Position numbers and translations under genes: made by a program
NCBI RefSeq assembly: GCF_003611465.1
Contig: NZ_RAXV01000034.1
Coordinates: 1 to 40,000, forward strand
Source: Acinetobacter tianfuensis
Lineage (GTDB): Bacteria; Pseudomonadota; Gammaproteobacteria; Pseudomonadales; Moraxellaceae
Reading direction: 5' to 3'
Length of the DNA: 40,000 nt
Part shown: positions 2,259 through 37,827 of the stretch, one piece after another
Layout of the letters: the number at the start of each line of letters is the position of its first letter
How positions within the stretch are numbered: position 1 is the first letter of the stretch
Notes under the pieces: model-generated
The model's database searches: none
The model's input: the letters and a program-made list of their open reading frames with translations, nothing else
What the model was told of the DNA's origin: nothing

Positions 2259-2903
2259 ATGAAGCATTCAGCCATTCAAATACGGCGTAAGCCACGTCAA
2301 TCTCGTGCCAAACTGACCCAAGAAGCCTTACAGGACAGTTTTGTTCGGCTTTTGCATGAGCGCCCTGCCAGCCAAATTACCATTCGGGAAATTACCGACC
2401 TTGCAGGCGTTGGCTTAGGGACGTTTTATGAGTATTTTTCTAAGAAGGAAGATTTGATTGCGCTGACCATTCATTTGCATGTGAAGCACAATGCGGAAAG
2501 CTTAAAAAGTTATGCACAAAGCTTGATCAAGTTATCCACAAATTTGGAGTTTCAGGTGTATTTAGAAAGAATTATTCATTTTCAAATTGAGCAAATTCAA
2601 GCACAGCAGTTTTTATGGTCACAGGTATTTTTGCTGGAACGGCAAATTTCAGATATTGAAAGTTACCGTAAGAGCTATGCCATGATGGTGCAAATGTGGC
2701 AAAGCATTCTTGCACCGTTTATACAGAATGATAAACAGCTCACGTCGATGGCTTTAAATATGCAACGGGTGTGTTATGGCTTTGTATCGCAGACTTTGTT
2801 GATTGAGCCAGAGTTTGGGGATTGGGAAATCTTTGAAATTAATATTATTCAAATGCTAAAATCAACTAATACAAAGCAATTTCAAAATTATACAAGATAT
2901 TGA
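2259..2903 (+). CDS. TetR/AcrR-family transcriptional regulator
   Basis: 214 aa with an N-terminal HTH (ITIREITDLAGVGLGTFYEYFSKKEDL). It is divergent from the acyl-CoA dehydrogenase gene. Confidence 0.8.
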   Translation: MKHSAIQIRRKPRQSRAKLTQEALQDSFVRLLHERPASQITIREITDLAGVGLGTFYEYFSKKEDLIALTIHLHVKHNAESLKSYAQSLIKLSTNLEFQVYLERIIHFQIEQIQAQQFLWSQVFLLERQISDIESYRKSYAMMVQMWQSILAPFIQNDKQLTSMALNMQRVCYGFVSQTLLIEPEFGDWEIFEINIIQMLKSTNTKQFQNYTRY

Positions 2904-2928
2904 GATTAAATAATTTTATGGGGGATTT

Positions 2929-3858
2929 ATGAAACTAAACTATTTTACTTACTGTTTTGAAAGATTCGATGATAAACAACAATTTCGCTGTAATATTCGT
3001 GAATTTATTAAAGCTTCTACTTCACCACAAGCCCTACCATTTGCACGAGTAAATAAACATTCTGGAGAAAACCTATATTTACTCCCTGTTCTATCGGGTC
3101 TTTATTTATTCGTTCAAACAAAAGATCGAGAAATTATAAAAAAAATTGAACGAAAAGATGACGAAATTAAAGCTCACGAAATTCAGTCTTTACTAACTAA
3201 AGATGAAAGCTTAGGTTTTGCTTCATACATATATTTTCATCCTATGATCAATGTATTTGGATTTGCATCCCGAGTACTATCGCCCAAATGTACAGTTTTT
3301 CAAACTTTTATTAACAACTTGCTCTTAATGCTTAATATCCGTGACATCAATTTTTTAATACATCCATTAAAAACACAAATTACTAAAGCAGAAGCAATGA
3401 AGTTTCCATTTATTGGTACTACACGCGTTTTAGTCAATGGAAATAGTAGCTTTGGACAAAATGTTAAAGAATTTTTGCTAGGCTCCACTAATCAAAATGA
3501 TCTAGAGATTATTGAAAGTTTTGAAATTATTATTAAACCCTCTCCACGAAAGCCTCTCACTGATACTATAAAACATCAATTAGCTACATTAGATGATGAC
3601 GGTGTTAAAGGTATTATTTTACGTGCTAAACAAAATTTGGAAGATAATATCAAAGATTATTACATACATCAGGCTGGTGCATTGTACGATGAGATTACCA
3701 ATACAGAAGAAGAAAAAATATTTAATGAAATTAAAGATAAATTAGAAAACAATAGTGAGTTGGCTGAAAAGGTGTCCGAATATGAACATGAAGTCCCAGA
3801 AGGTTCTAATGAACGTATTAATCATTTTAGTCAGCCCGATAATTGGCGTACTGACTGA
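2929..3858 (+). CDS. Hypothetical soluble protein, RexA-like (candidate abortive-infection sensor)
   Basis: 309-aa ORF with a GGGGGA Shine-Dalgarno just upstream of the ATG, in very AT-rich DNA. Ordered motifs LYLFVQTKD, DESLGFASYIYF, GFASRV, FIGTTRVLV, FEIIIKPSPRK and IILRAKQN parallel lambda RexA as I recall it (FLFTKTND, DESLGFPSFLF, GFARTV, FIGRTTVKV, LDIVIKPKFKR, ISLRAKDE). Confidence 0.55.
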   Translation: MKLNYFTYCFERFDDKQQFRCNIREFIKASTSPQALPFARVNKHSGENLYLLPVLSGLYLFVQTKDREIIKKIERKDDEIKAHEIQSLLTKDESLGFASYIYFHPMINVFGFASRVLSPKCTVFQTFINNLLLMLNIRDINFLIHPLKTQITKAEAMKFPFIGTTRVLVNGNSSFGQNVKEFLLGSTNQNDLEIIESFEIIIKPSPRKPLTDTIKHQLATLDDDGVKGIILRAKQNLEDNIKDYYIHQAGALYDEITNTEEEKIFNEIKDKLENNSELAEKVSEYEHEVPEGSNERINHFSQPDNWRTD

Positions 3859-4249
3859 GCTCATATATTTTCATTATTTGAAAGAAATTATTACTATTAG
3901 TTTTTTTACAAATGCTAAAGACCTAGCAACTGCACTTCTCAGCTATGCTATCGCTATGTTTGGTATTGTCGCTATGATAATTACACTAGTTTATGGTCTA
4001 TCAAAACCAGGTGTAAGTAATTATAGGAAAAAGTTTGGTGTTCAATTTGCTTTGCTTTGGATATTTTGTATTATTTATCTATCACTTACTGGACTATTAT
4101 CCATTTTAGGATTTGCTAAAATTGATATCATGTATTTATCTATCTTAATAAAAATATTTCTTGTGCTGTTTATATCTAGCTTTATTCAATCAATCATTAC
4201 TATTTTTATTGGTATAGCAATTTTAATTAACAGCAACAAAGTCGCTTAA
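3782..4249 (+). CDS. Small four-TM membrane protein, RexB-like (candidate effector); start uncertain (3755/3782/3788/3809)
   Basis: The ORF overlaps the 3' end of the upstream gene in another frame. It has four long hydrophobic segments and is ~146-155 aa depending on start (lambda RexB is 144 aa with 4 TM). AAGGTG lies 7 nt before ATG 3782 and AGAAGG lies 5 nt before ATG 3809. Local resemblance to RexB: LIYFHYL, ATALLSYAIAM. Confidence 0.5.
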   Translation: MNMKSQKVLMNVLIILVSPIIGVLTELIYFHYLKEIITISFFTNAKDLATALLSYAIAMFGIVAMIITLVYGLSKPGVSNYRKKFGVQFALLWIFCIIYLSLTGLLSILGFAKIDIMYLSILIKIFLVLFISSFIQSIITIFIGIAILINSNKVA

Positions 4250-4250
4250 T

Positions 4251-4280
4251 AAAAAACCGCCTTTTCAGGCGGTTTTTTTT
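4251..4280. terminator. Bidirectional rho-independent terminator shared by the cassette and katG
   Basis: AAAAAA-CCGCC-ttttca-GGCGG-TTTTTTTT. Confidence 0.85.
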
Positions 4281-4295
4281 ACATCTCAATGCAAA

Positions 4296-6548
<2,253 letters not shown>

Positions 6549-6832
6549 TTAACCTTTTTAAGTGACAATATGAAGTGAGTTTTACGAATAAAAACAATCG
6601 TTTTATTCAATTTAAGCGCTTCAAAATAAATGACATTTTATTTTTCATAGAGTTAGATCTCTGCTTATGAAAAATTCATCTTTAAGCGCGTTTTCTCAAT
6701 CATTTTTATATTTTTTTATCGGTAAAAAAAGAAAACGTTAAGTTTATGGACTGAAATTAGTGTATTTTTTAAACTCATTTTAAAAATACTGATAAACTAA
6801 ACAAATAAATAAAATGAAAAGAGTGTGGATGT

Positions 6833-7273
6833 ATGCAAAACGATATCCCAAATATTTTTCAGCAGCATAATATTATTTTATTCGATGCCATCTGCGTACT
6901 TTGTAATGGCTGGGCTAAATTTTTAATTAAAAATGATCGGCAGAAAAAATTCAAATTGGCTTCCGTCCAGTCCCCGCTTGGGGAAGCAATTTTAAAACAT
7001 TATGGTATGTCTACCGAAAATTACACCACCATGGTCGTCATTTTAAAAGGTCAGCGATACCTTGAATCTGCTGCCCTCCTCAAAGTCCTGCAGCGCTTAG
7101 GCATGCCTTACTCGCTGCTCAGCGCAGGCTTCATTATTCCCCAAGCAATCCGTGATTTTTTATATCGCCGTGTCGCTCTCAACCGCTATCAGCTATTTGG
7201 CACCACAGATTATTGCCTGCTGCCGTCTGCAGAAAATCAGCAGCACTTTTTAGAATATGCCATCCATGACTAA
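6833..7273 (+). CDS. DCC-family (DUF393) thiol-disulfide oxidoreductase
   Basis: 146 aa with N-terminal LFDAICVLCNGWAKFL (C-x-x-C), as in DCC1-like proteins. Confidence 0.7.
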   Translation: MQNDIPNIFQQHNIILFDAICVLCNGWAKFLIKNDRQKKFKLASVQSPLGEAILKHYGMSTENYTTMVVILKGQRYLESAALLKVLQRLGMPYSLLSAGFIIPQAIRDFLYRRVALNRYQLFGTTDYCLLPSAENQQHFLEYAIHD

Positions 7274-7655
7274 ATCAGCCCGGCACATCGTGCTCGGCAT
7301 TCACTTCAGTCTGGCCGTTTTATGGTTCTATCAAGGTTTAGTACCCAAAATTTTAGTACAAGCGCCTGATGAACTGCGGATTTGGGCACTGCAAGGCGTA
7401 ACAGAGACTAACGCTGTTATTCTGATGCAGTTATCTGGCTGTGCAGAGATTATTTTTGGCCTGCTGTTCCTGCTATTTCGCCAAAGTCAGCGGTTACATG
7501 TGCTGAATATCGCTGGCATGCTGGGACTGAGCGCCCTCATTTTATGGCTTGATCCGCAATATTTTTTGCAGGCTTTTAACCCTTTTGTCATGAACGCTGC
7601 CATGACCGCGCTCTCAGTCATTGCCATTGTACTGATCCAAGAAGAAAAGCAATGA
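7257..7655 (+). CDS. DoxX-like small membrane protein
   Basis: 132 aa with four hydrophobic helices. It overlaps the DCC gene by 17 nt, a common DCC/DoxX-like pairing. Confidence 0.5.
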   Translation: MPSMTKSARHIVLGIHFSLAVLWFYQGLVPKILVQAPDELRIWALQGVTETNAVILMQLSGCAEIIFGLLFLLFRQSQRLHVLNIAGMLGLSALILWLDPQYFLQAFNPFVMNAAMTALSVIAIVLIQEEKQ

Positions 7656-7656
7656 C

Positions 7657-8718
7657 TTAAACCGTTAAACGCTTGCCTTCACGGATACAAATAAAAGGAT
7701 TCATCAGCTTCGAAGACTTCTGACGCGCTTTTTGCAAGTCTTCTTCCGGCTGTTCACGGCTTTCATCTGTCAGCTGGAAAGTGCGGTAGTGAATGGCCAA
7801 AGAGCATTTTGCATGCAAGTCTTTATGCGCCTGAAACGCTTCATCTGGGTTCATGTGCAAATAACGCATCAGCAGACGCGGCTCATAAGCGCCAATCGGC
7901 AGCAGCGCAATACGCGGCGCACCATATTTGGCATAGATGTCTTTAAAATGCGGTGAATAGCCTGTGTCGCCAGCAAAGAAGCAATGATCCTGACCATTCA
8001 GCACAGAAAACCCGCCCCATAAGGCACGGTTCTGATCGCGCAAACCGCGGCCTGAACCATGCTGCGCTGGCGTATAAACCAGTTTCAAATCGCCTAATAA
8101 AGAAGACTGCCACCAGTCCATTTCATAAACCTGGAAATGATCTGGCAAATAGAATGCATTGCCCAAACCTGTATAAATAGGCATCGCAAAACGCTCATGC
8201 AGCCACGTCAGGCTTGCGATATCCATGTGATCATAATGATTATGGCTCAGCAGCACGGCATGAATTTCTGGAAGCTCCTCCAAAGCAATACCGGCAGGAC
8301 AAACACGGCGCGGCCCGCTGCCCTGTCTAGGCCCTGCATACTCAGACCAGACAGGATCCGTCAGCAGGTTATAAGGGCCAATTTGAATCAGCACCGTCGC
8401 ATGGCCGACAAACCACACCTGCCAATCATCTAATTTGGCATTCGGGCGGTTTTGCGGCAAAGAGCGCGAAGCCTGTTCAAATTGCTGATACTCCTTTTTA
8501 CGGTCTACGCTCCATGTATAAGAACGGCGCTTGAGCATCCATTTTACAAAATTTGAACGCTTATGACTTTCTGGCGGCCGCAGCGCATTCAGAAAATGTT
8601 CACCATTAAAATGCTCCGATGCGAGGTAATCAAATATCGGCTGCTGCCAAGTATGCGACCAGCAGCTGGCTGCCGGCAATTGAAAATGCTTTTGTTCTAC
8701 ATCTTGCTTCATGGACAT
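7657..8718 (-). CDS. MBL-fold metallo-hydrolase (NAPE-PLD-like)
   Basis: 353 aa with the metallo-beta-lactamase motif LLSHNHYDHMD. Confidence 0.75.
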   Translation of the reverse strand: MSMKQDVEQKHFQLPAASCWSHTWQQPIFDYLASEHFNGEHFLNALRPPESHKRSNFVKWMLKRRSYTWSVDRKKEYQQFEQASRSLPQNRPNAKLDDWQVWFVGHATVLIQIGPYNLLTDPVWSEYAGPRQGSGPRRVCPAGIALEELPEIHAVLLSHNHYDHMDIASLTWLHERFAMPIYTGLGNAFYLPDHFQVYEMDWWQSSLLGDLKLVYTPAQHGSGRGLRDQNRALWGGFSVLNGQDHCFFAGDTGYSPHFKDIYAKYGAPRIALLPIGAYEPRLLMRYLHMNPDEAFQAHKDLHAKCSLAIHYRTFQLTDESREQPEEDLQKARQKSSKLMNPFICIREGKRLTV

Positions 8719-9131
8719 TCAAAGTTCTTCAATTTAAAAAATACGAAATCAGCAGCGCCTCATGCTCACAGTCTGCTTCGACAACATTATTCGCCATTCA
8801 CGCCAGCTTGACTCATTTAACAGCTGGACAAAGCTTGCCATATTTTCAGAGTCAATCTGTTGCGTTTATGATTCAAAGCGTTTATTGCTTGCATATGCCG
8901 CAGCGCTTCGTCATTTTTAAACGCTTACCTAAAAGAAGCAATACGCCTAAATGCTTAGACTGCCTAAAACCCAATTTTCAGCCGAAATTTCACGCAGCTA
9001 AGCGAAGTACAGTACATATTCAGCAAAAGTATAAAAATATTTCATGGCCCTGCTGTGCATCACTCCGCATGAATGGTCATTTTCCATAGACCAGAACACC
9101 ATAGAAAAAGGAGTCGCAGCCCCTTGATGTT

Positions 9132-10040
9132 TTATTTTGTAAAATACTGTCCGCGCCACTCTTTCCAGAAGTAAAGCACAATACCGAACATCACCGCGCT
9201 AATCCCCAATACAGCATTCGCGCTAATATGTTCATGATTTAAAGTCGCGCCCAGAACCAAAGCAATGACTGGCGTCATGACATTACTTAATGACACTGTT
9301 GAAGCGGCTAGGCGTTTGATCAGCCAGAAGTAGCACAGCATGGCCACAATGGATGACAGAATCATGGTAAATAAGAAACCGATCATGGCATTGCTGCTTG
9401 GCATCTGGGTCGGGAAATGCTGCCAGATAAATGGAATCAGCAGCAGTGAACCCAGTGCAGATACAATGAGTGATCCCGTTGCTTGCGACATCGGTTTCAG
9501 CGGCGCATTAATCTGCTTGACCCAAAAAATAGAGCTGATATATGACACCATACTGATCAGCATCAGCACGATGCCCCATGGGTTAACTTTGCTGTCGGCT
9601 GAATCAATAAATACATAACTTAAGCCCACAATCGCAATCGCCATGCCCAGCCACTGCAGCCACACCAATCTATGCGTTTTTAAAATCACATGGCCAATAA
9701 GACCTGCAATCAGCGGTGAAAAACCGAAAATCAGCGCCATCAAACCTGAGGTTAAATAATTGGCTGCCAGATAAATAAACAGCTGCGCGCCAATCAAATT
9801 CAGACTGCCTGCCACGTAACTCTGCATAGACACTTTGTCAAAAGGCAGCGGGCCGCGCATCAGCTTAAGTAAGAATAAAGCAATGATTGAAGCGCCAAAA
9901 TAGCGAATGATCAGCACCCACATTGGATGTACTTCCGCCACACTCCAGACAATCGCAAGCGGCGTAGCTGCCCAGATCAGCACCAGCAAAGCATAAATAC
10001 TTGCCGTGATCATCATGGGAGAGGATGAATTTGAACTCAT
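9132..10040 (-). CDS. EamA/DMT-family transporter
   Basis: 302 aa and ~10 TM segments, with the two-repeat architecture typical of EamA. Confidence 0.8.
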   Translation of the reverse strand: MSSNSSSPMMITASIYALLVLIWAATPLAIVWSVAEVHPMWVLIIRYFGASIIALFLLKLMRGPLPFDKVSMQSYVAGSLNLIGAQLFIYLAANYLTSGLMALIFGFSPLIAGLIGHVILKTHRLVWLQWLGMAIAIVGLSYVFIDSADSKVNPWGIVLMLISMVSYISSIFWVKQINAPLKPMSQATGSLIVSALGSLLLIPFIWQHFPTQMPSSNAMIGFLFTMILSSIVAMLCYFWLIKRLAASTVSLSNVMTPVIALVLGATLNHEHISANAVLGISAVMFGIVLYFWKEWRGQYFTK

Positions 10041-10113
10041 AAACTGCTCAATAAAAATGTATTAGAAAGAATCGAACCAAATTTATGTTCAAATCTGCAA
10101 TCAACAATACCGG

Positions 10114-10206
10114 TGGCGGCAAGGATGCCGCCAGATCGTTTGGGGTATAGAGATATACCCTCAAACGATCAAAAAAATTTTGTTACTTTTCATCTTTGAA
10201 AAGTAA
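10114..10206. other. Cluster of three strong hairpins in the eamA-hcaD intergenic region
   Basis: 10114-10133: TGGCGGCA-agga-TGCCGCCA. 10134-10170: GATCGTTTG(g)GGGTATA-gaga-TATACCC(t)CAAACGATC. 10183-10206: TTACTTTTCA-tctt-TGAAAAGTAA. Confidence 0.5.
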
Positions 10207-10283
10207 AACACACCTACGCAATGCCATTAAAAATCACAATGCAAATTGCGGTCATGTCTCAAATAATAAAATAAAACAGCCAT

Positions 10284-10315
10284 AAAAAAGCAGACCTAGG
10301 TTGCCCAAGGTCTGC
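10284..10315 (-). terminator. Rho-independent terminator after hcaD
   Basis: GCAGACCT...AGGTCTGC stem. On the minus strand it is followed by a T-run (A-run 10284-10289 on plus). Confidence 0.7.
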
Positions 10316-10344
10316 CCTGCTGTAAACTCATAAATAAAGCAAAG

Positions 10345-11574
10345 TTATTTCACAAGCTTACGAAGATCTTGGCTAAGATCTAAATATTTGTCCGCTTCAA
10401 ACAATGCATTCTTGCTGATCAGCTTTTTAAGATGACGCATGTCTTTGGCTGCGTTCACAGTGATACCGCCCACGATCACACCGTCGGTCACACCGAACAA
10501 TACGAAAGAAGATTCCGCACGCTGCTCTGCATTGATTTCACCGCGTACCTGCCATTCGCTGGCTGCCATATCACCTACGAATTGGTAGTTGATGTCTAGC
10601 TGATCTGTCCAGAACCAAGCTGGATTTGGCACAGGATGCTCAACACCCATCACATGACGCGCGAAGATGCCTGCTTGAAGGTTGGCATTTTCCCAAGTTT
10701 CCACACGGCGGTGGTTACCGCAGTCACGAAGCTGAGTCGCAACATCACCTGCAGCATAGATGTCAGCATTAGACGTTTGGCAGTTTTCATTCACAAGAAT
10801 GGCAACATTTACGTCTAAGCCAGCATCCGCTGCAAGCTGTGCATTTGGCACAATGCCGATACCATAAATCACTGCATCTGCACGTAAAACTTCGCCATCA
10901 CCTAAAGTCACAACAACTTCTTCGCCTTCAAGCTTGCAGTCTGCAATTGAAGTGGAAAGACGCACGTCTACCCCTGCAAGGCGCTGCTGTTCAAGCAAGA
11001 ATTCGCTCAAAATACGTGGCGAAGAACGGCCCATCACCATTGGACCCATTTCAATGACGGTAACGATACAGTCTTTGAAACGAGCCGATGAAGCAAGCTC
11101 TAGACCGATTACACCGCCGCCGATCAAGACAATACGCTTACCAGCCTGCAATACAGGAACAAGCGCTTGAGAATCTTCAAGGTTACGCAGTGTATAAACG
11201 TGTTTGCCCAAAGCATCGAAGTTTGGCAAACGGCGCGCTGCGCCGCCTGTTGCTAGAAGCAATTTGTCATAAGCAACAAGATCACCGTTTTGAAGTGCAA
11301 CCGTTTTCGCATCTGCATTGATTTTCACAACGCCATTGCCGCGAATGGTTTCAACACCAAGTTCTGCCAATTTGTCTTCTGACAAAATTTCAATCTTGGT
11401 GTCGGAAGGTTTTAGAATCACGTCTTTTGATAATGGCGGACGCTCATAAGGAAGATGCGTTTCATCACCAATTAAAATGATTTTGCCTTCGTATTTGTTG
11501 CCGCGAAGTTCTAAAATCGCGCTCGCACCTGCTTGGCCAGCACCTACGATTACAACGGTTTCGATGTTGCTCAT
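10345..11574 (-). CDS. hcaD: Ferredoxin-NAD(+) reductase component of 3-phenylpropionate/cinnamate dioxygenase
   Basis: The likely start MSNIETVVIVGAGQAG (FAD GxGxxG) trims 17 codons from the track ORF. The protein has two Rossmann folds and HLPYERPPLSK, as in HcaD/BphG. Confidence 0.85.
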   Translation of the reverse strand: MSNIETVVIVGAGQAGASAILELRGNKYEGKIILIGDETHLPYERPPLSKDVILKPSDTKIEILSEDKLAELGVETIRGNGVVKINADAKTVALQNGDLVAYDKLLLATGGAARRLPNFDALGKHVYTLRNLEDSQALVPVLQAGKRIVLIGGGVIGLELASSARFKDCIVTVIEMGPMVMGRSSPRILSEFLLEQQRLAGVDVRLSTSIADCKLEGEEVVVTLGDGEVLRADAVIYGIGIVPNAQLAADAGLDVNVAILVNENCQTSNADIYAAGDVATQLRDCGNHRRVETWENANLQAGIFARHVMGVEHPVPNPAWFWTDQLDINYQFVGDMAASEWQVRGEINAEQRAESSFVLFGVTDGVIVGGITVNAAKDMRHLKKLISKNALFEADKYLDLSQDLRKLVK

Positions 11575-11579
11575 GTAAA

Positions 11580-12545
11580 TTAACCTTTTAATTCTGCAGA
11601 TACGATGCCGAAGCCCGCAATCCACTCGCTAATATCTTCATAGCAGTGAGTTGTCATTTCATACTCACCAAGTTCGCTGAGCGCAGCAAAAGCAGCCATC
11701 CATGAACGGACTTCTTGACCGCCACGGCCGCCGTCACGGCGGATTTCTGCCTCTGTCATTGCTTCCAGCGCAACGAAATCAGCATTCTTGAATTTTTCAA
11801 GCAATGCGATATCCCATTCAGGACTCAATGGCACAGCAACAGACGTATCGCCTGCAGCCAATTTCTGGCCCACAGCAATAATCTTCGCTTGACGTGCATT
11901 ACGCGCTTCTGCTGTTGGGTTGCGGCCCGCAATCAGGAACTCTTCCACTTCAGGCGGCACAGCACCCATTTGCGGTGTCGGCGGATCGTGTGAAAGACCG
12001 CCAGTCCCCAGCACAAGCACACGCTCATTTTCAAGGTTTAAAGACTGGATAAACTGACCTACAGCACGGCCCAAAGCGATCGTGCGCTTTGTGGTTGGCA
12101 TCGGTGCTGCAGCGCCATTGATAAATACTGGAATCGTTGGATAACGATCAAGTTTGCCTTCGCATAAAAAATGTAAGGGCTGAGTCACACCATGATCCGC
12201 TTGCATACGGTATGAGTATGCAACGTCCACACCTTCATCGAGCACACGGCGAACCATCGCCAAAGCTTTGTCCTCAGGCACATTAATATGGTCATTGTCT
12301 TTACCGTAATCCCAGTCGCCTGCAGCTTTGGCACGGATACCCACGCAGAAACTTGGCATCAGGTCATAGAAGAAACCATTGAAATGGTCTGGACCAAACG
12401 TGATGATTAAGGTCGGGTCGTAAGCTTTTACTTCAGCAGACAGTGTTTCAAAAGCATCGCGAACTTTTTGCTCTTGAGATTGATCTTGCGGTGAAGCAAA
12501 TTCCATTAAAGGACTGTGCGATGCACAAATAAGTTTAACGGCCAT
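11580..12545 (-). CDS. mhpB: LigB-type extradiol dioxygenase, 2,3-dihydroxyphenylpropionate 1,2-dioxygenase-like
   Basis: The start MAVKLICASHSPL has TGGAG 6 nt upstream. APDHFNGFFYD-type, GGLSH and EWIAGFG motifs are shared with E. coli MhpB. Confidence 0.75.
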   Translation of the reverse strand: MAVKLICASHSPLMEFASPQDQSQEQKVRDAFETLSAEVKAYDPTLIITFGPDHFNGFFYDLMPSFCVGIRAKAAGDWDYGKDNDHINVPEDKALAMVRRVLDEGVDVAYSYRMQADHGVTQPLHFLCEGKLDRYPTIPVFINGAAAPMPTTKRTIALGRAVGQFIQSLNLENERVLVLGTGGLSHDPPTPQMGAVPPEVEEFLIAGRNPTAEARNARQAKIIAVGQKLAAGDTSVAVPLSPEWDIALLEKFKNADFVALEAMTEAEIRRDGGRGGQEVRSWMAAFAALSELGEYEMTTHCYEDISEWIAGFGIVSAELKG

Positions 12546-12555
12546 GAGAGACTCC

Positions 12556-12585
12556 AAAAAGGAAGGCAGCTAATGCTTAGCTGCC
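12556..12585 (-). terminator. Terminator-like hairpin inside the operon, between hcaB and mhpB
   Basis: Minus strand: GGCAGCTAA-gca-TTAGCTGCC followed by TTCCTTTTT. 9-bp perfect stem. Confidence 0.4.
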
Positions 12586-12610
12586 GATAAGTCCATTTAA
12601 GACTGGATTT

Positions 12611-13426
12611 TTATTCGTCAAAGAAACCTGCACGCGGCTGACGCAAGCCGCGAATTCCTAGACCGCATTCTGCATTAATCAGAACACCAGTCAGCGGACG
12701 GTTATTTTGACGAGATGCCAAGAGCACGTATGAACCCGTCATTTCTTCCGGCTCAGGCAGGAAGTTCAGCGGCATGCCGCGCGCGATTTTCTCAGGATCA
12801 CGGGCATCCAGCAGGCCAACATTGTCTTGACCCAAAGATGCAGCGCCTTTGATGTTCACATTCATACCTGACGGAGCAACAGCGTTCACTCGTACTTTAG
12901 GCGCAAGCTCATAAGCCAATTCTTTCATAATACCCACACCTGCATGCTTAGATGCAGTGTATACAGGGCCTCCGCCAGCGGAGTACAGTGCCGAATTAGA
13001 CAAAGTAAATATGATAGAACCTTCAGAAGCGATCAATGCATCCAGCGCAGCTTTAGCGCCAAGGATTAACGACTTGGTGTTAATCCCCATGATTTCATCA
13101 AAGGCTTTATCCAGCTGTTCACCGGAAGTATTGACGATATCGGCATAATGATCCCAGATACCGGCATTGCCTACGAAGCAATCCAGCTTGCCAAAACGCT
13201 CTACAGTGGCATTTACAGCACGGACATTGTCTTCATAGCTGGCAACATCACCAGCGATTGCAAGAATACGGTCACCGAAATGTTCTTTTAAAGCATCAAC
13301 TTTAGATTGCGAACGCTGAAGAACCGCAACCTGTGCGCCTTCTTCTAAGAAACGTTCAACTAAAGCCCAGCCTAAACCAGAACCGCCGCCTGTGATTAAT
13401 GCAACTTCGCCTTGCAGCCAGCCCAT
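12611..13426 (-). CDS. hcaB: cis-dihydrodiol dehydrogenase (SDR), 2,3-dihydroxy-2,3-dihydrophenylpropionate dehydrogenase
   Basis: 271 aa with ITGGGSGLG, NAGIWD and YTASKHA. Very close to E. coli HcaB as recalled. Confidence 0.85.
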   Translation of the reverse strand: MGWLQGEVALITGGGSGLGWALVERFLEEGAQVAVLQRSQSKVDALKEHFGDRILAIAGDVASYEDNVRAVNATVERFGKLDCFVGNAGIWDHYADIVNTSGEQLDKAFDEIMGINTKSLILGAKAALDALIASEGSIIFTLSNSALYSAGGGPVYTASKHAGVGIMKELAYELAPKVRVNAVAPSGMNVNIKGAASLGQDNVGLLDARDPEKIARGMPLNFLPEPEEMTGSYVLLASRQNNRPLTGVLINAECGLGIRGLRQPRAGFFDE

Positions 13427-13428
13427 GA

Positions 13429-13755
13429 TTACTCTCCTGCCATCTCAACAAATAACGCGCCATCTTCAACAACAACCGGGAATGTTTGAATTGAGTCAGT
13501 TGCCGGTAAGCAAAGCGCCTGACCTGTTTTCAAACAAAAACGTGCAGCATGAAGCGGGCACTCTACTGTACCGTCATCCTCAAGGTAGCCTTCAGACATA
13601 GACGCGTTGCCGTGTGAGCAGCGGTCATTCATTGCAAAGAACTCACCGCCGTTGTTGAATACTGCAAGCGCATCAATACCGTTTACGCCGCAATCTACTT
13701 TCAATGCTTCGCCTTCGTCTAATTCATCAACTTGGCAAACAAAAATTTTATTCAT
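13429..13755 (-). CDS. hcaC: Rieske-type ferredoxin component
   Basis: 108 aa with the CSHG...CPLH Rieske motif. Confidence 0.9.
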   Translation of the reverse strand: MNKIFVCQVDELDEGEALKVDCGVNGIDALAVFNNGGEFFAMNDRCSHGNASMSEGYLEDDGTVECPLHAARFCLKTGQALCLPATDSIQTFPVVVEDGALFVEMAGE

Positions 13756-14273
13756 TAGAAGAATACACTCAGGTTATGTGAGTTATACGTCACTTGATCA
13801 AGCACGATCTTACGGTTGAAGATCTGGAAGCCTAAGCCGCCTTCAACTTTACGGATCTTGTCATGACGCTTACCGCAGTAAATCGTTACGTCTTTCTCTT
13901 TTTGCGTACGGTATAACAAATATGTTACGTACACATCGTATTCGCCCTCTGTCTCAGCAGCTTCTACAATCACGTTGCTCACCATGTGAGTTGTACGCGA
14001 CGGAGGCTCTTCAGCCCAAGCCATGCCTGTTTCAAGACGGGCAACACGGCGCTCTAAAAGATCTTTCGAGTCGTTGAACACCCAAGTTGTAGGCGGTTCA
14101 ACTGAACGGCGGCGGTCACGGGTTTGTGCATTTGGCGTTGTACGCAGCGTATAAGAAATATCTTCCGCCAACACAGCCAGCCAATCGCGGAATTTCCAGT
14201 CATCAAGAAGCTTTGCTTCTTGATAAAGGAACTGACTAATTTGGTGATGAAGTTCTAAACTCACTTGACTCAT
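13755..14273 (-). CDS. hcaF: Ring-hydroxylating dioxygenase beta subunit
   Basis: 172 aa with an NTF2-like beta-subunit pattern. It overlaps hcaE by 4 nt, and its stop overlaps the hcaC start (TAATG). Confidence 0.85.
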
Positions 14274-15637
14274 TTCATAAGCTCCTTCTCGTATTCGTCA
14301 GCCGCTGCTTCAACGTCTTCCCATTTTTCATGAATCAATAGATCTGCCCAGCGGCGGTACATGCCGCGCGCTGCAGTTTCAGAGAAAATATAGTTGGTGA
14401 TACCAGGGATACCGTCTTCACGTACTTTCTCGTTGCCTTTACCCATTTCCATAATGAGTTTGTTTTGACGCGCTTTATAGCCGCGTAAAACTTTTTGAAT
14501 CTCAATCCAGTTTTCAGAGTCATCTTGCTCTAGGAAACCAGCTGGACCGAAGGCGCGCGTTGCCGAACGCTCAAATGCTTCTTTCACTTCTTGAGATGCT
14601 TCAGCGTCTGCAATACAGAATGCCCACACTTCAGTTTTATTTGGACCGCGCGGGTGCCATACGCGAAGTGTCGCCGTACCGTTCAGCCAAGACAGTGTCG
14701 GGAACATGGTGTTGTGACCTGCAAGACGCAGTGCGCGCACTTCACCCAAACGCTCTTTAACTTCTTCATAAGTTTCACGGAAGTAGTTTGCAACTTCACC
14801 GTCAACCCATACGTTCGCATCTGGTTTTTCTGTAAAGAAGAAACCTGAACCATGGCCGCGTGAACCGTATTGAAGCGCATCTTTCGCTGTTTCCCATACT
14901 GGACGAGCCGTTTGCGCAGCGCCTAGTTTTTTAGATGCTTCGTCGTCTGGTTTTGCGCCAAGCACTTGAATCGCAGAAGCGTGAGAGAACAAGGCATGGT
15001 ATTGGTCAGAAGCGAACTGTTCCGCTGCAAATTTCCAGTTACAGTCGATTTCCCACTTGTGCACACCGCCGATGATTTCTGTACCGCCTGGACGACGATC
15101 CAGAACACCATCTAAATACCACGCGATATCGCCCATGTATTCTTCTAGGTCAGGCGTTGTTTCATCCCAGCAAGCAAATACTAAACCTTTGTATGATTTA
15201 ACACGGTTGACTTCAATCAGGCCCCATTGCTCTTTGCAAGCGCCGTGCGGATAAGCGCGCTCTTCAAGCGGAATATCTTTGAGTGAACCGTCAATGCCGT
15301 ATGACCAGCCGTGGTACGGGCAAGTAAACGCACGGGTATTGCCGCAGTCTGCAAAGCTTACGCGCATAGAACGGTGACGGCATTGGTTTAAAAATGCTTT
15401 GATTGAACCGTCTTTTTGGCGCGCCACAATAATCGGATCTTCACCCATATAGGTATTGAAGAAATCACCAGCCTTAGGAATTTGGCTTTCATGGCATAGG
15501 AATAACCAAGTACGACCAAATACGCGCTCTAGCTCAAGCTCGTAGATGTCAGGATTAGTATAGATAGATGGCGTGATACGTCCATTTTGTGCATCGACTA
15601 AAGCATCGATTTCGCACACATCAATTTTTCCACTCAT
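14270..15637 (-). CDS. hcaE: Ring-hydroxylating dioxygenase alpha subunit (3-phenylpropionate/cinnamate dioxygenase)
   Basis: Start MSGKID with AGGAG 8 nt upstream. Rieske CRHR...CPYHGW. Long stretches are identical to E. coli HcaE as recalled ([55 protein letters not shown]). Confidence 0.9.
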
Positions 15638-15808
15638 GAAAAGCTCTCCTGTGACCAGCAATGGCACAAAGTAAATAGACTCAACTTTTCAACGATGATG
15701 GATTTTTGGCAGGTTTTGGTGAAATATTTTTTTTGTTTTAATTAAGAGATTTTAGAGATTATTAATCGGGTTATTCCTTATATTAAAACACCAAGGAAAG
15801 GCTGTAGA

Positions 15809-15827
15809 CCATTTACTTCCTAAATGG
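15809..15827. promoter_or_regulatory. Perfect inverted repeat CCATTTA-N5-TAAATGG (fits LysR T-N11-A) in the hcaR/hcaE divergent region
   Basis: 7-bp perfect arms, ~90 bp upstream of the hcaR ATG. Confidence 0.4.
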
Positions 15828-15917
15828 CAAAATAATCTGCACGCCATAGTTGATTATAGATTATACTGACTCGAACTCATAGTAAGACATTTTTTGGATT
15901 ACTCCTAGGCTGAATAT

Positions 15918-16817
15918 ATGGAATTACGACACCTTCGCTACTTTATTACCGTTGCTGAAGAATTGAACTTCAGTAAAGCTGCTTTAAAACTTTATACCGC
16001 TCAGCCTTCGCTCAGCCAGCAAATTAAGGACCTGGAAGAAGACGTAGGCGTACAGCTGCTTCACCGCACCAAGCGTAAAGTAGAACTGACTGAAGAAGGC
16101 GCCGTATTTCTAGAACAAGCCCGCTTAACCCTTGCGCAAGCCGACAAAGCCATTGCGATGGCGCGTCAGGTTTCACAAGCTAAACAGCAAATGCTGCGCA
16201 TTGGCTTTGTGCCTGTTGCAGAGATGAAAATCTTCCCGTATGTCTTGCCAAACCTGCGTGTACAGAACCCTGACCTCAAAATTGAACTGCTAAGCCTCAA
16301 CAATATTGAGCAAATGAAATTGCTGAAAAAAGGTGAGCTCGATATCACCTTTACCCGCCATAATTTCAACAGTGACGAAATTGAAAGCCAGTTTGTGCTG
16401 CGCGAACCCTTGCTGTTTATTTTGCCAAAAGACCACCCGCTGGCAAAACATGAGAGAATCCCCGTTAAAGCATTGAATGGTATAGATTTTATTATCCCAG
16501 CGGCTGAACAGTCACTAACCCTGCACAACACAATTTTAGACTTTGCGAAAACCAATAATATCGAATTCAATATTGTTCAAAAAGCGGATAATATTCTATT
16601 TAATATCAACTCGATCGGCATGGGCCTAGGCTGTACAATTCTGCCGGGCTATATTGCGCCGCTGACCATGAACAATACGGTCATCCGTCCGCTGGATATC
16701 GAGCTGCCATATTTGGACCTATACGTCAGCTGGCGTAAAAACAGTGAATCCGTCGCAGTCAATAAATTTATGGAATTGCTGACACGCGTATTTTATTTAG
16801 ATATTACACGTGACTAG
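15918..16817 (+). CDS. hcaR: LysR-family transcriptional regulator, divergent from hcaE
   Basis: 299 aa. MELRHLRYFITVAEELNFSKAA is a LysR HTH. Its position matches E. coli hcaR. Confidence 0.8.
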   Translation: MELRHLRYFITVAEELNFSKAALKLYTAQPSLSQQIKDLEEDVGVQLLHRTKRKVELTEEGAVFLEQARLTLAQADKAIAMARQVSQAKQQMLRIGFVPVAEMKIFPYVLPNLRVQNPDLKIELLSLNNIEQMKLLKKGELDITFTRHNFNSDEIESQFVLREPLLFILPKDHPLAKHERIPVKALNGIDFIIPAAEQSLTLHNTILDFAKTNNIEFNIVQKADNILFNINSIGMGLGCTILPGYIAPLTMNNTVIRPLDIELPYLDLYVSWRKNSESVAVNKFMELLTRVFYLDITRD

Positions 16818-16854
16818 CCCCAATCCACTCAAACGTTTGTATTAAAATTAAACA

Positions 16855-16891
16855 GCACCATTATTTCCTTGGTAAATAATGGTGCTTTTTT
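16855..16891 (+). terminator. Rho-independent terminator of hcaR
   Basis: GCACCATTATTT-ccttggt-AAATAATGGTGC followed by TTTTTT. Confidence 0.85.
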
Positions 16892-17170
16892 ATGCGCAAA
16901 AAGTTTATTTTTCACTCATTCCAGACTTAAGTATGAGTCTATTTAAGTCATTGCCGATCTTTTTTTCCAATAACAGTCATGCAAATTTTTACTGCCGCCG
17001 GCTTTCAAAAATATCAAAGCATTCAAATTACAACTTAAGTCTAATACTTGAACCTTATGCTCTTCCCATTTTTGAGCCGCTCATTCTGCAGCAAATGAAA
17101 GATTTTCTGAATATATTTTAAAATACATGATAATAATACTCATTTAATTATACCGCTTTATTTTTAAGCT

Positions 17171-17199
17171 AAAAAAAGGGATGCCGCAGCATCCCTTTT
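17171..17199 (-). terminator. Terminator after mhpC (usable on both strands)
   Basis: AAAAAAA-GGGATGC-cgca-GCATCCC-TTTT. Confidence 0.75.
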
Positions 17200-17217
17200 A
17201 TCTAACAATGATAATGT

Positions 17218-18078
17218 TTATTCAACACCATGAACCGCTAAGTAGTTTTTAATGACTGTATTAAATTCATCAGCTTTTTCAACTTGAGACCAATGGCCGC
17301 ATTGGCTGAAAATGTGCGCATCAGCATTTGGAACAATATTTAAAATGTCCCAAGTCCGTGAAACTGGGATCACCACGTCTTGCGTACCGTGAATCAAAAG
17401 TACAGGCACAGTGATTTCTTTCATTTTTTCGAAGTCTAACGGGAATTCGAAACGGTCACGGTCACGTGCGCCCACAACATCCATCAAACGGTTTGATGCA
17501 TAGTCATTTGCAGCAGATGCAAAGCGTACTTTTACCAATTCATCAGTGATCAAATCTTTGTTCACAACAAACATAGATAATGTTTTCTTGATGCCTTCTT
17601 CTGTTAATACCGGATTTGCATGTGCTTTAAGCGCTGCTGTTTGTTTCGCGCCGCCAGTCCCCATAGACACGATACCCAATACACGCTCAGGATAATCCAG
17701 CGCCATTTGAAAAGCTAACCAGCCGCCTAGTGAGTTGCCCACTAACCATGTTTTTTCAATGCCAAGCGCATCTAAAGTACGTACAGCATGATCCACCCAA
17801 GCGCGGATACCGTAAGCTGTATTTGGCGCAACAACAGTTTGGCCATAGCCAATCGTGTCAATTGCGATGCAGCGCGCCTGCTCGCCAATTTGCGGCAAAT
17901 TCAGCCACCAGTTTGCAGCTGCAGATACACCCGTACCTGAACCGTGCAAGAATAGAATTGGAGTACCTTCACCAATTTCGTGATAGTGAGTGAGCTCACC
18001 TTCAGCTGTTTCAATCCATTTATCTTCTAAACCGAAAAATGAATCAGTTGTGTATTCAGGGATTTGAACTGTGCTCAT
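17218..18078 (-). CDS. mhpC: Meta-cleavage product (C-C bond) hydrolase, alpha/beta fold
   Basis: 286 aa with the nucleophile elbow GNSLGG, HGSG, and a C-terminal catalytic His (CGHW). MhpC/BphD family. Confidence 0.8.
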   Translation of the reverse strand: MSTVQIPEYTTDSFFGLEDKWIETAEGELTHYHEIGEGTPILFLHGSGTGVSAAANWWLNLPQIGEQARCIAIDTIGYGQTVVAPNTAYGIRAWVDHAVRTLDALGIEKTWLVGNSLGGWLAFQMALDYPERVLGIVSMGTGGAKQTAALKAHANPVLTEEGIKKTLSMFVVNKDLITDELVKVRFASAANDYASNRLMDVVGARDRDRFEFPLDFEKMKEITVPVLLIHGTQDVVIPVSRTWDILNIVPNADAHIFSQCGHWSQVEKADEFNTVIKNYLAVHGVE

Positions 18079-18316
18079 ACATACTCCTCGTACAGCGTAG
18101 CGCTTGCGTTTTCATCCGATCCAGATTTAAACGCTAATGGATTAAACATTTTTGTGTTTGACTCAATCATATTAACCGCTATCGCATGCCTAACTGATAC
18201 AAAATTACGATCATAAACAACATATTAAATATAATTTATCCTTTTGTTTTAAAACAGTTTTTTAAAACAAATACCCTTAGTTTCTGTCAGGTATTTTCCA
18301 GCCAAATACATTTGGC

Positions 18317-18347
18317 AAAAAAAGCAGCTGTGTACAGCTGCTTTTTT
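18317..18347 (-). terminator. Terminator after the porin gene (bidirectional shape)
   Basis: AAAAAAA-GCAGCTG-tgta-CAGCTGC-TTTTTT. Confidence 0.8.
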
Positions 18348-18364
18348 ATATAAGTTTCCGCAAA

Positions 18365-19618
18365 TTAGAACTTATAGTTATAAGTTACAGCAGTACGGTA
18401 TTCTTTTAAGTCTGATTTATAGTCAAAGTCTGCATCAATATACATTGCCTGCACACCTAAACCTTTCAGCTTGCCCTCTGGAACGGTGTAATTCACAATT
18501 AAATTCAGCTCATCTGAATCTTGATCTTTCTTACCATTGGTCTCAGCATCTTGACCCAGCATGTAAACCGCAGTCGCATTTAAACCTTTAGCACCCATTT
18601 CAGAGAAATCATAGCCATAGGTTAAGCCATACGATTTTTCATTTTTTGCCGTGAATGTCGCAACACCCCAGTTCACTAAATAAGGCTGCGGCACCCAGCC
18701 GCCCAAAGTCGGGAATGCTGAATCGCCAAACATTTGTTGATAACCTAGCCCTACTGTGTGCGCGCCATAATTTAATTTTGCACCGACAGAGAGTGCTTGG
18801 TTATCAATTTCGCCATACAGCTTGTCGCCAGACTCTGAGTTATCGAAGTAACGGATATGGCTGTCTAGTTTGGCTTTTTCACCCAGCTTAGTTTTGTAGT
18901 TTACGCCTGCATAATGCTGCTGATAAATATCTTGAACATCTGCATACCAGTAGCTGCCGCCAATTTCAGGTGTGAATTGATGGTCTACACCTGCAATCCA
19001 CATACCGTCTGCTGCAGGGCCATTATCATAAAAGTTTTTACCTTTCGCAGGCGCAAACAGCGTCAAATCACGGAATTGGTTGTCATAACGGTTATTGATG
19101 CTGTCGATGTACGCCAAAGTCAGCTTCGTGTCTTTAATGTCTTTAGACTCTAGCCAAGCACCGCCAAAAGTCGTTAAAAGCTGACGCGATGGATCAAATA
19201 CCAGCACTGGAGATACTGGAAGCAGTTCACCTACTTTTAATTCAGTTTGTGACACTTTTGCTTTTAATGTCGCGCCGGCTTTACCGAAATTATCTTTTGA
19301 CTCTTTGCCGTTATGCGGCAAGATGAAATCTGCGTTTTTATCACGTGCATTTAATTTAAATGCATGCTGCACCAAAAGGTCTGCACCGACTTGAATACCC
19401 GCGCCAATATCGTGATAGCCAGACTTTGCATCCAAAGTCACGCCCTGTGTCCAAGAACCCCAGTTATTTTGCGGCGCATCCGCAATTTGACGGTCTAAAT
19501 AGAAATTTTTTAATTTCAATTGAACCTGACTGTCGTCAATAAAATCTGCATAAGTTGCAGCTGTTCCCAAGGTTGCTGTCACAGCAATAATTGCTTTCCA
19601 TAAATTTTGACGACGCAT
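18365..19618 (-). CDS. OprD-family outer-membrane porin
   Basis: 417 aa with a signal peptide ending ...TYA/DF, an N-terminal FIDDSQVQLKLKNFY, and a C-terminal aromatic residue (YKF). Confidence 0.8.
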   Translation of the reverse strand: MRRQNLWKAIIAVTATLGTAATYADFIDDSQVQLKLKNFYLDRQIADAPQNNWGSWTQGVTLDAKSGYHDIGAGIQVGADLLVQHAFKLNARDKNADFILPHNGKESKDNFGKAGATLKAKVSQTELKVGELLPVSPVLVFDPSRQLLTTFGGAWLESKDIKDTKLTLAYIDSINNRYDNQFRDLTLFAPAKGKNFYDNGPAADGMWIAGVDHQFTPEIGGSYWYADVQDIYQQHYAGVNYKTKLGEKAKLDSHIRYFDNSESGDKLYGEIDNQALSVGAKLNYGAHTVGLGYQQMFGDSAFPTLGGWVPQPYLVNWGVATFTAKNEKSYGLTYGYDFSEMGAKGLNATAVYMLGQDAETNGKKDQDSDELNLIVNYTVPEGKLKGLGVQAMYIDADFDYKSDLKEYRTAVTYNYKF

Positions 19619-20135
19619 GGCTCTCTTCCTAAATCATCAGATTAAGCTATGGCGCTATCATGCTGAACAATACGCTTTGGAGAAATCAGACCACAGTATT
19701 AAGTATTTTCGACGAAGATACTCAGCCGATAACCCTGATGATTTTGCATGCTTTTTTTTAGAGCTTTCAGCAATAACCATTTTTTCAATAGTTTACCAAA
19801 CAATAAAAACAAGCAAATGATTTTAAATATTTAATATCTATTTTCATATTTTTTTATTTATATTTTCACTCTACTTATTGCTTTTAAGTTTAATACCTTA
19901 AAAAAAGGCTGGCGTTTTTCATTAAAACCCATATCTAAAACAAATTATTCAATACTTGAAAACTATCAATATCAAATATTTAGAATAAATTTTCCCTCAT
20001 TTTTATATGCTTTTTATTGATCACCGCCCATCTTCAGATCCAGCTGCCGCATACCAGCCTAATCTTTCAATAGCGCGGCTGTGGCAAATAAAAGAAAAAC
20101 GCCATACAAGATAAACTGCCTTTTGTACAAAACGG

Positions 20136-20163
20136 AAAAAGCACCCCAAATGGAGTGCTTTTA
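20136..20163 (-). terminator. Terminator after mhpE
   Basis: Minus strand: AAGCACTCCA-ttt-GGGGTGCTT (one mismatch) followed by TTTTCC. Confidence 0.55.
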
Positions 20164-20181
20164 TTGAATCAAACTTAAAAA

Positions 20182-21201: not shown

Positions 21202-21211
21202 GGTGTGCTCC

Positions 21212-22114: not shown

Positions 22115-22150
22115 TAACGTACTCTCTAAAAATTTTGCTCAGGCAGGATC

Positions 22151-22948: not shown

Positions 22949-23363
22949 CAATGTTTCCTTGAACTGCAAAATTTGGACTTACAGCGCTATCTGTGAAAAT
23001 GTAAAAGAACATTTATTTGAACGAAAAGATCAGCTCAATTTACGCAGCGCCTCCCAATACGAAGGCATTTCAACAGAAAACGCGAATATGAATACACTGA
23101 TTTAGAATCGAGATTTTGAGGTTTAAACGCCAATACTTATTTTATTTATAACAATAGCTAATTCCTATAAATTAACTCGGATTTATTATTTAAAAACAAA
23201 ACCTTAAACTTAAACAATGTACTGCATTCAAAATCAGGGTTTGTATGCCAATTCTGCAAGATAAGAAAAAAACACCGCATATACGACTAAAAGACTAGAT
23301 CGTTTGCTGTTTTTTTAAGACGGCAATTCAGCTTACAGGCTTTAAAACAAGCATGATTGGATA

Positions 23364-31603: not shown

Positions 31604-31627
31604 TTTACTTCGATACCATGCAAAGAT

Positions 31628-31703: not shown

Positions 31704-31748
31704 TCTTTCTAAATATCTTCATTTAGAGTAAAATTTGCAAATCCCTAA

Positions 31749-37823: not shown

Positions 37824-37827
37824 CTGA

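Follow-up and report, generated by a model that had tools for sequence, protein, structure and literature searches.

A RexAB-like gene pair in a variable tetR-katG slot of Acinetobacter tianfuensis: a likely stand-alone anti-phage module

RexAB is a textbook system and the oldest abortive-infection system known. Here, we study a two-gene cassette at positions 2904-4295 of a 40,000-nucleotide (nt) stretch of Acinetobacter tianfuensis DNA (contig NZ_RAXV01000034.1, positions 1 to 40,000; called the window in the following), i.e., two overlapping open reading frames (ORFs), both on the plus strand, with a tetR gene on the left side and a katG gene on the right. A preliminary description, made by reading the sequence, had likened the two ORFs to RexA and RexB of phage lambda and had taken them for a chromosomal defence islet domesticated from a phage. 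The question raised by this locus is whether the pair is a genuine and intact Rex system and, if so, what it does between two chromosomal genes. We consider it likely, with the function included in that estimate, that the cassette is an intact, horizontally acquired RexAB-type anti-phage module that stands alone in a small hypervariable chromosomal defence slot. The rexAB genes are named "hypothetical protein" in the public Acinetobacter records examined, and our literature search found no paper on RexAB in Acinetobacter.

Identity of the two genes

The first gene (2929-3858, plus strand) encodes a protein of 309 amino acids (aa). It is matched by the Pfam model RexA PF15969 with an E-value of 1.4e-53 and 182 bits (cutoff 25), covering profile positions 1-234 of 235 and residues 1-240. 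Respective matches are found for the RexA model of PADLOC (3.3e-51) and for the PHROG family "RexA-like exclusion protein" (3.6e-25). The sole strong match among all sequences of the Protein Data Bank (PDB) is lambda RexA (8TWQ; 8.2e-17). No NCBIfam model matches this gene or the second one.

We also compared structures. The AlphaFold2 model of the first gene product is based on 24 homologues and shows a predicted local distance difference test score (pLDDT) of 78 and a predicted template-modelling score (pTM) of 0.69. Foldseek reports only two significant matches for this model, namely the chains 8twq_B and 8twq_A (E=1.1e-16 and 2e-15, both with probability 1.00). The template-modelling score against 8twq is only 0.45-0.53, with a root-mean-square deviation of about 18 Å. 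Plausibly, this is because the two domains are oriented differently towards each other in model and crystal, since the crystal form of lambda RexA is described as a "closed" conformation (PMC11077077). The third match, a chain of the kinetochore's constitutive centromere-associated network (CCAN; 7xhn_N, E=0.03), seems to fit the known relationship in fold, i.e., RexA is distantly related to RdgC and IML3-CHL4 (PMC11077077). With regard to RdgC and IML3-CHL4 (CENP-L/N), the similarity is remote and structural only, and no RdgC sequence signal was seen.

A global alignment with lambda RexA gives 77 identities among 270 aligned positions (about 28%). The lambda residues R219 and K221 correspond to R232 and K234, and the LRAK motif is identical. 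In lambda, the R219/K221 double mutation abolishes DNA binding (PMC11077077). That is, the first gene is a RexA homologue with the fold of lambda RexA as well as the arginine/lysine pair that lambda RexA needs to bind DNA. Lambda RexA binds DNA as a dimer and has RexB, a protein with four transmembrane segments, as its interaction partner (PMC11077077), and by analogy the product studied here is probably a soluble, dimeric two-domain protein that binds DNA and acts as sensor or activator.

The protein is about 30 aa longer than lambda RexA. Its C-terminal tail (residues about 256-309) is rich in acidic residues (15 D/E vs. 6 K/R) and modelled as a helix, and the positions N275, L278, K281, V282 and W306 are near-invariant among homologues. 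A profile search of 1.84 billion cluster representatives yielded 299 RexA relatives at E<=1e-3, 227 of them at E<=1e-30. Most of the 150 relatives listed are 300-320 aa long and match out to the C-terminal tail, such that the long-tailed RexA is the norm of this clade.

The frame of the second gene is open from a GTG at 3755 (164 aa), followed by ATG codons at 3782 (155 aa) and 3809 (146 aa). While gene callers choose 3809, the start is probably 3782, because an AAAGG motif resembling a ribosome-binding site (3768-3772, plus strand) is placed 9 nt upstream of it and the resulting N-terminus MNMKSQK resembles the MNKKSQN of plasmid homologues. The gene thus spans 3782-4249 on the plus strand, and its product is 100% identical to a protein recorded for A. 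tianfuensis. The RexB model of PADLOC matches its product with 9e-9 over 135 of 141 profile positions, and one single BLASTP comparison with lambda RexB gives 21% identity (E=2e-4). We also collected and aligned the ORFs found downstream of 14 RexA homologues. The resulting family profile aligns to lambda RexB (hhalign) over 129 columns with 95.8% probability and E=6.8e-9.

Kyte-Doolittle analysis places four hydrophobic segments at residues 12-30, 52-70, 91-109 and 125-143, in parallel to the segments 8-26, 48-66, 84-102 and 116-134 of lambda RexB. Both proteins have a basic N-terminus and a basic loop joining helices 2 and 3. Given the positive-inside rule, which states that basic residues favour the cytoplasmic side, these residues would place both termini of either protein in the cytoplasm. 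No relative of solved structure was found for the second gene product. From these profile and hydropathy comparisons, we identify the second gene as a divergent RexB homologue with four predicted hydrophobic helices, and its product would, by analogy, be a four-helix inner-membrane effector.

Taken as a pair, the two genes, i.e., a RexA plus a RexB as PADLOC and DefenseFinder define the system, are almost certainly members of the RexAB family. The likeness to lambda extends to both families, their order and strand, i.e., a soluble RexA followed by a RexB of about 150 aa with four transmembrane segments, as well as to the RexA fold with its LRAK motif and to the helix positions and basic loop of RexB. 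This is what the preliminary description had proposed. The six RexA motif pairs and the RexB motifs it listed are all present in the real lambda proteins, and the full-length profile matches, the 8TWQ chains as the only significant PDB matches of the model, and the RexB-like size and helices agree with its assignment. Differences to lambda are found in the sequence identity (about 28% for RexA, 21% for RexB), in the extra acidic tail of about 30 aa, in the setting, i.e., outside a prophage immunity region and without cI or cro, and in the gene junction, where a gap of 15 nt in lambda contrasts with an overlap of 50-77 nt here.

For the favoured start, this coding overlap comprises 77 nt (3782-3858, plus strand), with rexB in the +1 frame relative to rexA. 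Depending on the start chosen, its length is 50-104 nt, and both 3782 and 3809 are inside rexA. We find the rexB start within the 3' end of rexA in 15/15 homologous pairs, down to about 30% RexA identity, with overlaps of roughly 60-110 nt when counted from the first in-frame start. Within the overlap (only about 13 synonymous sites), the rexA frame shows a synonymous divergence of 0.27-0.60 vs. at least 1.4 elsewhere. Such depressed synonymous change is what dual coding predicts. The overlap probably couples the translation of both genes and thereby fixes the RexA:RexB ratio, a plausible role given that stoichiometry affects Rex activity in both lambda and Pseudomonas putida (PMC12894663).

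Both genes are under purifying selection. In comparisons with four homologous pairs, the ratio of nonsynonymous to synonymous substitution rates (dN/dS) amounts to 0.07-0.11 in rexA and 0.13-0.20 in rexB, and dS is close to saturation.

Composition, edges and expression signals of the cassette

Both flanks of the cassette are backbone. On the left, a regulator of the tetR family (2259-2903, plus strand; Pfam TetR_N 2.8e-8) ends 25 nt ahead of the rexA ATG (2904-2928). On the right, the catalase-peroxidase gene katG (4296-6482, minus strand; Pfam peroxidase match on the called gene) has orthologues of 80-93% identity in equivalent position in those relatives that retain katG. The cassette has a G+C content of 30.0%, compared to 38.8% for tetR, 47.2% for katG and 44.2% for the whole window. 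When scanning the window in stretches of 1392 base pairs (bp), the lowest G+C content is found in the cassette region (minimum 0.295 at 2851), with a 5th percentile of 0.382 and a median of 0.445. With regard to the layout, the preliminary description was accurate, i.e., the coordinates of the two co-oriented, overlapping ORFs between tetR and katG and the 25-nt spacing are borne out, and its G+C counts for individual sequence lines (22 and 16 in the cassette, 31 in tetR, 35 in katG) are exact.

A second very AT-rich stretch (6483-6832, G+C content 0.25-0.27) is the intergenic region between the divergent katG and a DCC1-like gene. It is presumably promoter or regulatory DNA and not acquired cargo.

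The edges of the cassette can be read from alignments with relatives. On the left side, DNA homology to A. cumulans, A. bouvetii and others fades at about 2835-2870, such that the last 12-17 or so tetR codons (about 2850-2903) are already variable DNA. On the right side, homology resumes exactly at a terminator hairpin downstream of katG (4251-4278, no strand assigned). This hairpin is a perfect 12-bp inverted repeat with a 4-nt loop (AAAAAACCGCCT-tttc-AGGCGGTTTTTT), flanked by runs of A6 and T8, with a free energy of -15.7 kcal/mol and a z-score of -5.84 vs. shuffled sequences. A. cumulans, A. bouvetii, A. chengduensis and A. pragensis share this hairpin 3' of katG but have unrelated DNA on its left side. 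That is, 4251-4278 is the native katG terminator and forms the right edge of the variable DNA. Folding and the inverted repeat hence agree with the bidirectional intrinsic terminator that the preliminary description had assigned to the cassette and katG in common; the element belongs to the backbone. The rules of our terminator scan gave no terminator here, and the hairpin was instead found by repeat finding and folding. We suspect that the stem and tail rules of the scan are ill-suited to a hairpin whose stem includes A and T runs.

Direct and inverted repeats flanking the cassette are short AT-rich matches. The best flanking pair was rejected as a terminal repeat, since its right arm (4276-4290) is backbone conserved in other species. 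When the window was scanned for pdif (XerC/D) sites, none came closer to the cassette than 13 kb, and the only match, a weak one, is at 17195, i.e., no inversely oriented 28-bp XerC/XerD sites bracket it. Likewise, we found no integron around the cassette, and neither an attC-like nor any other recombination site. Our guess is that the conserved tetR and katG sequences on either side allowed the cassette to be exchanged via homologous recombination. Except for the ribosome-binding site and a short GATATT-like stretch, the DNA preceding rexA cannot be aligned with that of the plasmid, prophage and A. lactucae copies introduced below, and therefore the left end of a mobile unit cannot be defined from it.

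Signals for expression are present. A promoter-like site (2833-2862, plus strand; TTGAAA, an 18-nt spacer with a TG element, and TAAAAT) agrees with the consensus at 10/12 positions and ends 67 nt upstream of rexA. It is a possible promoter of the cassette itself. A consensus scan supports no claim of an internal promoter resembling lambda PLIT. The rexA ATG is preceded by GGGGGA (2920-2925, plus strand), read from the sequence as Shine-Dalgarno-like, and a GGGGGA/GGGGGG run also precedes the starts of plasmid homologues. The scan places no terminator between tetR and rexA. Transcription of rexAB would start at a promoter in the AT-rich DNA just upstream, by read-through from tetR, or both, and would stop at the katG terminator.

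The tetR-katG slot and relatives of the pair

We surveyed the slot using the TetR protein as query and one genome per species, which resulted in 57 Acinetobacter loci (L007-L063). The species of the window itself was not among the genomes obtained from this species-representative collection (best TetR match 89%), and a look-up of the exact KatG sequence gave the same contig only, such that presence and absence are compared between species. All 56 loci for which the upstream flank is present show aidB next to tetR, with tetR divergent from aidB, and most of the 57 loci run on into katG, DCC1 and DoxX. RexA or RexB at the tetR-katG junction is found in none of the 57 other species (0/57), in line with the polymorphism proposed for this junction.

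The gap between tetR and katG measures anything from 0.5 to over 3 kb. Where katG is retained (roughly 40 species), the gap usually has 26-35% G+C (a few 40-47%) and holds mostly unrelated ORFs. Of these occupants, 17 ORFs were tested for defence matches. A. sichuanensis carries UzuA of the Uzume system (3.8e-66; L063, 6632-7444), Acinetobacter sp. CFCC 10889 a retron-type reverse transcriptase with a 214-aa partner (3e-47; L017, 6797-7522 and 7734-8378), and A. gerneri PDC-S29 (4.5e-89; L052, 7071-7700). Further occupants are a DUF5677 protein (L034), an IS30-like transposase (L041), LysR/LysE (L033, L054), a Sel1 protein (L023) and a DUF4142 protein, and no match was obtained for the ORFs at 6874-7833 of L008, 6701-8008 of L012, 6926-7858 of L019, 7324-8028 of L018 and 6816-7607 of L040. 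We thus regard the tetR-katG slot as a hypervariable candidate defence hotspot.

The survey also clarifies the role of tetR. Since tetR adjoins aidB whatever the downstream cargo is, its association with rexAB is shown to be positional and not functional. We tried and rejected tetR as an analogue of cI, given that it pairs with aidB across species and that homologous cassettes elsewhere come without a co-oriented upstream repressor. In a lambda-type rex operon, the pair is placed in a prophage downstream of a cI-type repressor, with which it is co-transcribed; here, the upstream gene is a TetR backbone gene. The echo of the cI-rexA-rexB order that the preliminary description had seen in tetR hence does not hold as an evolved feature, while the read-through it had also considered is physically possible. 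A similar split applies to its islet hypothesis. A chromosomal defence islet agrees with the defence genes that the slot carries in other species, but domestication from a phage is too narrow an account, as plasmids, a prophage and further chromosomal sites also carry homologous pairs.

With regard to plasmids, small ones of A. johnsonii (pAJ14), A. baumannii, A. chinensis and A. pittii carry the pair with 70-72% RexA identity. On pAJ14 (NZ_CP045100, 2711-6372) and p1_010005 (NZ_CP032127, 3743-7400), rexAB is found back to back with the three genes of a candidate system of PADLOC, PDC-M21 A/B/C, with matches of 2.5e-42, 8e-78 and 2.2e-23. On pAJ14, the five genes are enclosed by a pair of pdif-like XerC/D sites in inverse orientation (2711-2738 and 6345-6372), judged against what we take to be the pdif consensus, with a poor XerC arm in one of the sites. 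This suggests that the pAJ14 unit is a mobile two-system defence module.

A temperate phage of the Ab105-2phi type from A. baumannii (IMGVR_UViG_2684622683_000003, 7017-10638) carries a pair of 75% identity between a Q-like antiterminator and the NinB/terminase/portal genes, i.e., unlike in lambda, the pair is not adjacent to a repressor. We read this placement as a moron-like position. In the phage-isolate collection, no copy of more than 60% identity was found, only RexA genes of the lambda type with about 26-30% identity. On chromosomes, A. lactucae shows an 80% pair about 1.5 kb downstream of an AbiJ-like gene, and A. vivianii a 40% pair that has queA on one side and a histidine-kinase gene, followed downstream by glnE, on the other.

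More distant members of the clade are found in phage-like settings. A metagenome contig (882-3807) encodes Phage_CI_repr, a 274-aa gene of unknown function, and then RexA with a small ORF. Given this repressor two genes upstream, a cI-linked, lambda-like layout does exist within the long-tailed RexA clade. Another distant member is placed near a tape-measure gene. The settings of these distant members root the RexA clade in temperate phages, in agreement with the literature, while its Acinetobacter branch moves among prophage, plasmids and chromosomal sites.

No such phage setting is found around the A. tianfuensis pair. Based on Pfam assignments for the called genes of matching contigs and our own scan of the remaining large ORFs, we find no phage, integrase or cI-like gene among the called genes and sizeable ORFs (at least about 100 aa) of the window, which agrees with the preliminary description. 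The rest of the window comprises metabolic, regulatory and housekeeping genes as well as three tandem tRNA-Lys(UUU) genes (31528-31824). The latter are followed by a 217-aa ORF (32029-32682, minus strand) of native G+C content, the only sizeable ORF without a Pfam match. Judged by eye, it looks like a lipoprotein (N-terminal hydrophobic stretch followed by a cysteine). A radical-SAM/HHH protein adjoins a DUF4130 protein at 37029-39087 (minus strand), a pairing that may be related to DNA repair or modification. Finally, positions 10345-22969 (minus strand) hold a cluster that by Pfam looks like one for the catabolism of aromatic compounds: alpha and beta subunits of a Rieske ring-hydroxylating dioxygenase, ferredoxin, reductase, LigB-type dioxygenase and short-chain dehydrogenase, as well as a LysR regulator, an OprD-family porin, a meta-cleavage-type HMGL-like aldolase, acetaldehyde dehydrogenase and FAA hydrolase.

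Proposed function and its alternatives

For the likely anti-phage module, we propose the following mode of action. A RexA-like dimer and the RexB-like protein would be made in fixed ratio via the translational coupling in the overlap. Upon infection, a protein of the phage or an intermediate of phage DNA and protein would activate the dimer, which would then engage the RexB-like protein at the inner membrane. The latter would dissipate membrane potential or integrity, such that growth halts and phage replication fails. We infer the sensing, the RexA-RexB interaction and the membrane effect by analogy with lambda RexAB, RexABpp of the P. putida prophage P1 (PP_5643/5644), Sbash gp30/31 and CarolAnn gp44/43. 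Each of the last three combines a sensor and an effector with four transmembrane segments in two genes, where RexA binds DNA and RexB leads to membrane damage and growth arrest (PMC12894663), which is the mode presumed here. RexA overexpression results in RexB-dependent membrane damage and growth arrest, and stoichiometry matters (PMC12894663).

The five Rex-like systems characterised so far are all prophage-encoded (PMC12894663), in contrast to the Acinetobacter pair, which stands alone in a chromosomal hotspot. While RexApp is recognisable by HHpred only, the Acinetobacter RexA is a strong Pfam match. According to DefenseFinder, RexAB is encoded "in majority" on prophages (PMC9090908), which leaves a minority outside of them. 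Sucellos (SclA/SclB) of the Vibrio cholerae superintegron is likewise a Rex-like two-gene cassette outside a prophage and has been shown to defend; its likeness is structural only, without matches to Pfam Rex domains, and it is an integron cassette (bioRxiv 10.1101/2024.07.02.601686). Orphan RexA genes in Shewanella khirikhana and Salinisphaera sp. are also found outside integrated prophages, but these examples have no adjacent RexB and/or prophage context (PMC11077077), whereas the RexB partner is present and conserved in Acinetobacter.

Several observations weigh against a functional module of this kind. First, the Pfam scan gives no match of RexB PF15968 to the second gene, although 3/14 members of its family are matched directly (best 1.9e-7). 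A pipeline that relies on this model alone may consequently miss the pair. Second, the AlphaFold2 model of the RexB-like protein, which shows four long helices, is of low confidence (pLDDT 60.5 from a shallow 6-sequence alignment). Third, the lambda RexA hinge residue G140 is replaced by Q150 and D215 by G228, i.e., neither is conserved. Fourth, the promoter scan of the region found 7 sites where 10.6 are expected from shuffled sequences, such that 2833-2862 is a candidate only. Furthermore, the two proteins have swapped roles in mycobacteriophage Butters (PMC12894663), such that homology does not tell in which direction the signal runs.

The Butters system leads to a first alternative. Following the logic of its gp30/gp31, the cytosolic RexA-like protein would be the toxic or antiviral effector and the membrane-bound RexB-like protein would sequester it until infection. 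One of the five Rex-like systems characterised is arranged in this way (PMC12894663), and the conserved overlap with its fixed stoichiometry suits sequestration as well as activation. The long conserved acidic tail of RexA could, in such an arrangement, be an element that docks to RexB. On the other hand, the Rex models of Pfam and PADLOC group the pair by sequence with lambda RexA/RexB, and RexB is the effector in lambda as well as in the P. putida, Sbash and CarolAnn systems, which are described as similar to it. We therefore consider a reversed logic unlikely.

It is to a similar degree doubtful that the pair is retained because of some non-defence role, be it in host energetics or proteolysis or as an addiction or stabilisation module of mobile elements. 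Such a role is not without precedent, as lambda RexB is an inhibitor of ClpXP/ClpAP and also interacts with NADH dehydrogenase. Lambda Rex shows several non-defence activities, and the authors of the RexA structure raise the question of whether its true function is exclusion (PMC11077077). In addition, homologues are found on small plasmids, where addiction modules are common. However, the chromosomal copy has no element to stabilise, and no cI/Cro switch is present that RexA could modulate. Moreover, the neighbours on plasmids and the occupants of the equivalent slot are defence or candidate-defence genes.

Finally, a decaying, non-functional remnant of a former prophage or plasmid insertion would agree with the foreign base composition and the 75%-identical pair in a genuine A. 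baumannii prophage, but is very improbable given that both ORFs are of full length compared with about 230 clade representatives of 305-320 aa, that dN/dS is 0.07-0.2, that ribosome-binding motifs, overlap and terminator are all intact, that no other phage or plasmid fragment lies alongside the tight boundaries at tetR and the katG terminator, and that three sequencing runs gave the identical RexA sequence.

The intact anti-phage module thus remains the reading we prefer. A broader claim, which we put forward only tentatively, is that the Acinetobacter RexAB branch as a whole is a phage-independent, freely moving defence cassette that occupies a chromosomal hotspot, accompanies PDC-M21 in the pdif-type modules of plasmids and occurs as a moron in a prophage. 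If this is true, the persistence of the pair without cI/Cro would indicate that exclusion, and not the tuning of lysis and lysogeny, is the selected function of Rex, and the conserved rexA/rexB overlap together with the acidic RexA tail would be a device for stoichiometry and docking. The tetR-katG slot would be a previously undescribed Acinetobacter defence hotspot, with new defence genes to be expected among its occupants, e.g., the 319-aa ORF of A. cumulans, the 435-aa ORF of ANC 3903 and the 310-aa ORF of UBA3106.

We regard three aspects as mildly new, i.e., the complete phage-independent pair, the clade-wide overlap together with the RexA tail, and the compact tetR-katG defence hotspot. 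The slot is a compact place to seek more small defence genes, and the pair, with just two genes, is a simple object for tests in a genus of clinical relevance for which phage therapy is pursued. In the study on the lambda RexA structure, the question is raised if Rex is there for exclusion at all or if exclusion is a side-effect of its role in the choice between lysis and lysogeny (PMC11077077). A conserved, prophage-free RexAB pair that is under purifying selection and placed among defence genes is comparative evidence for defence being selected in its own right.

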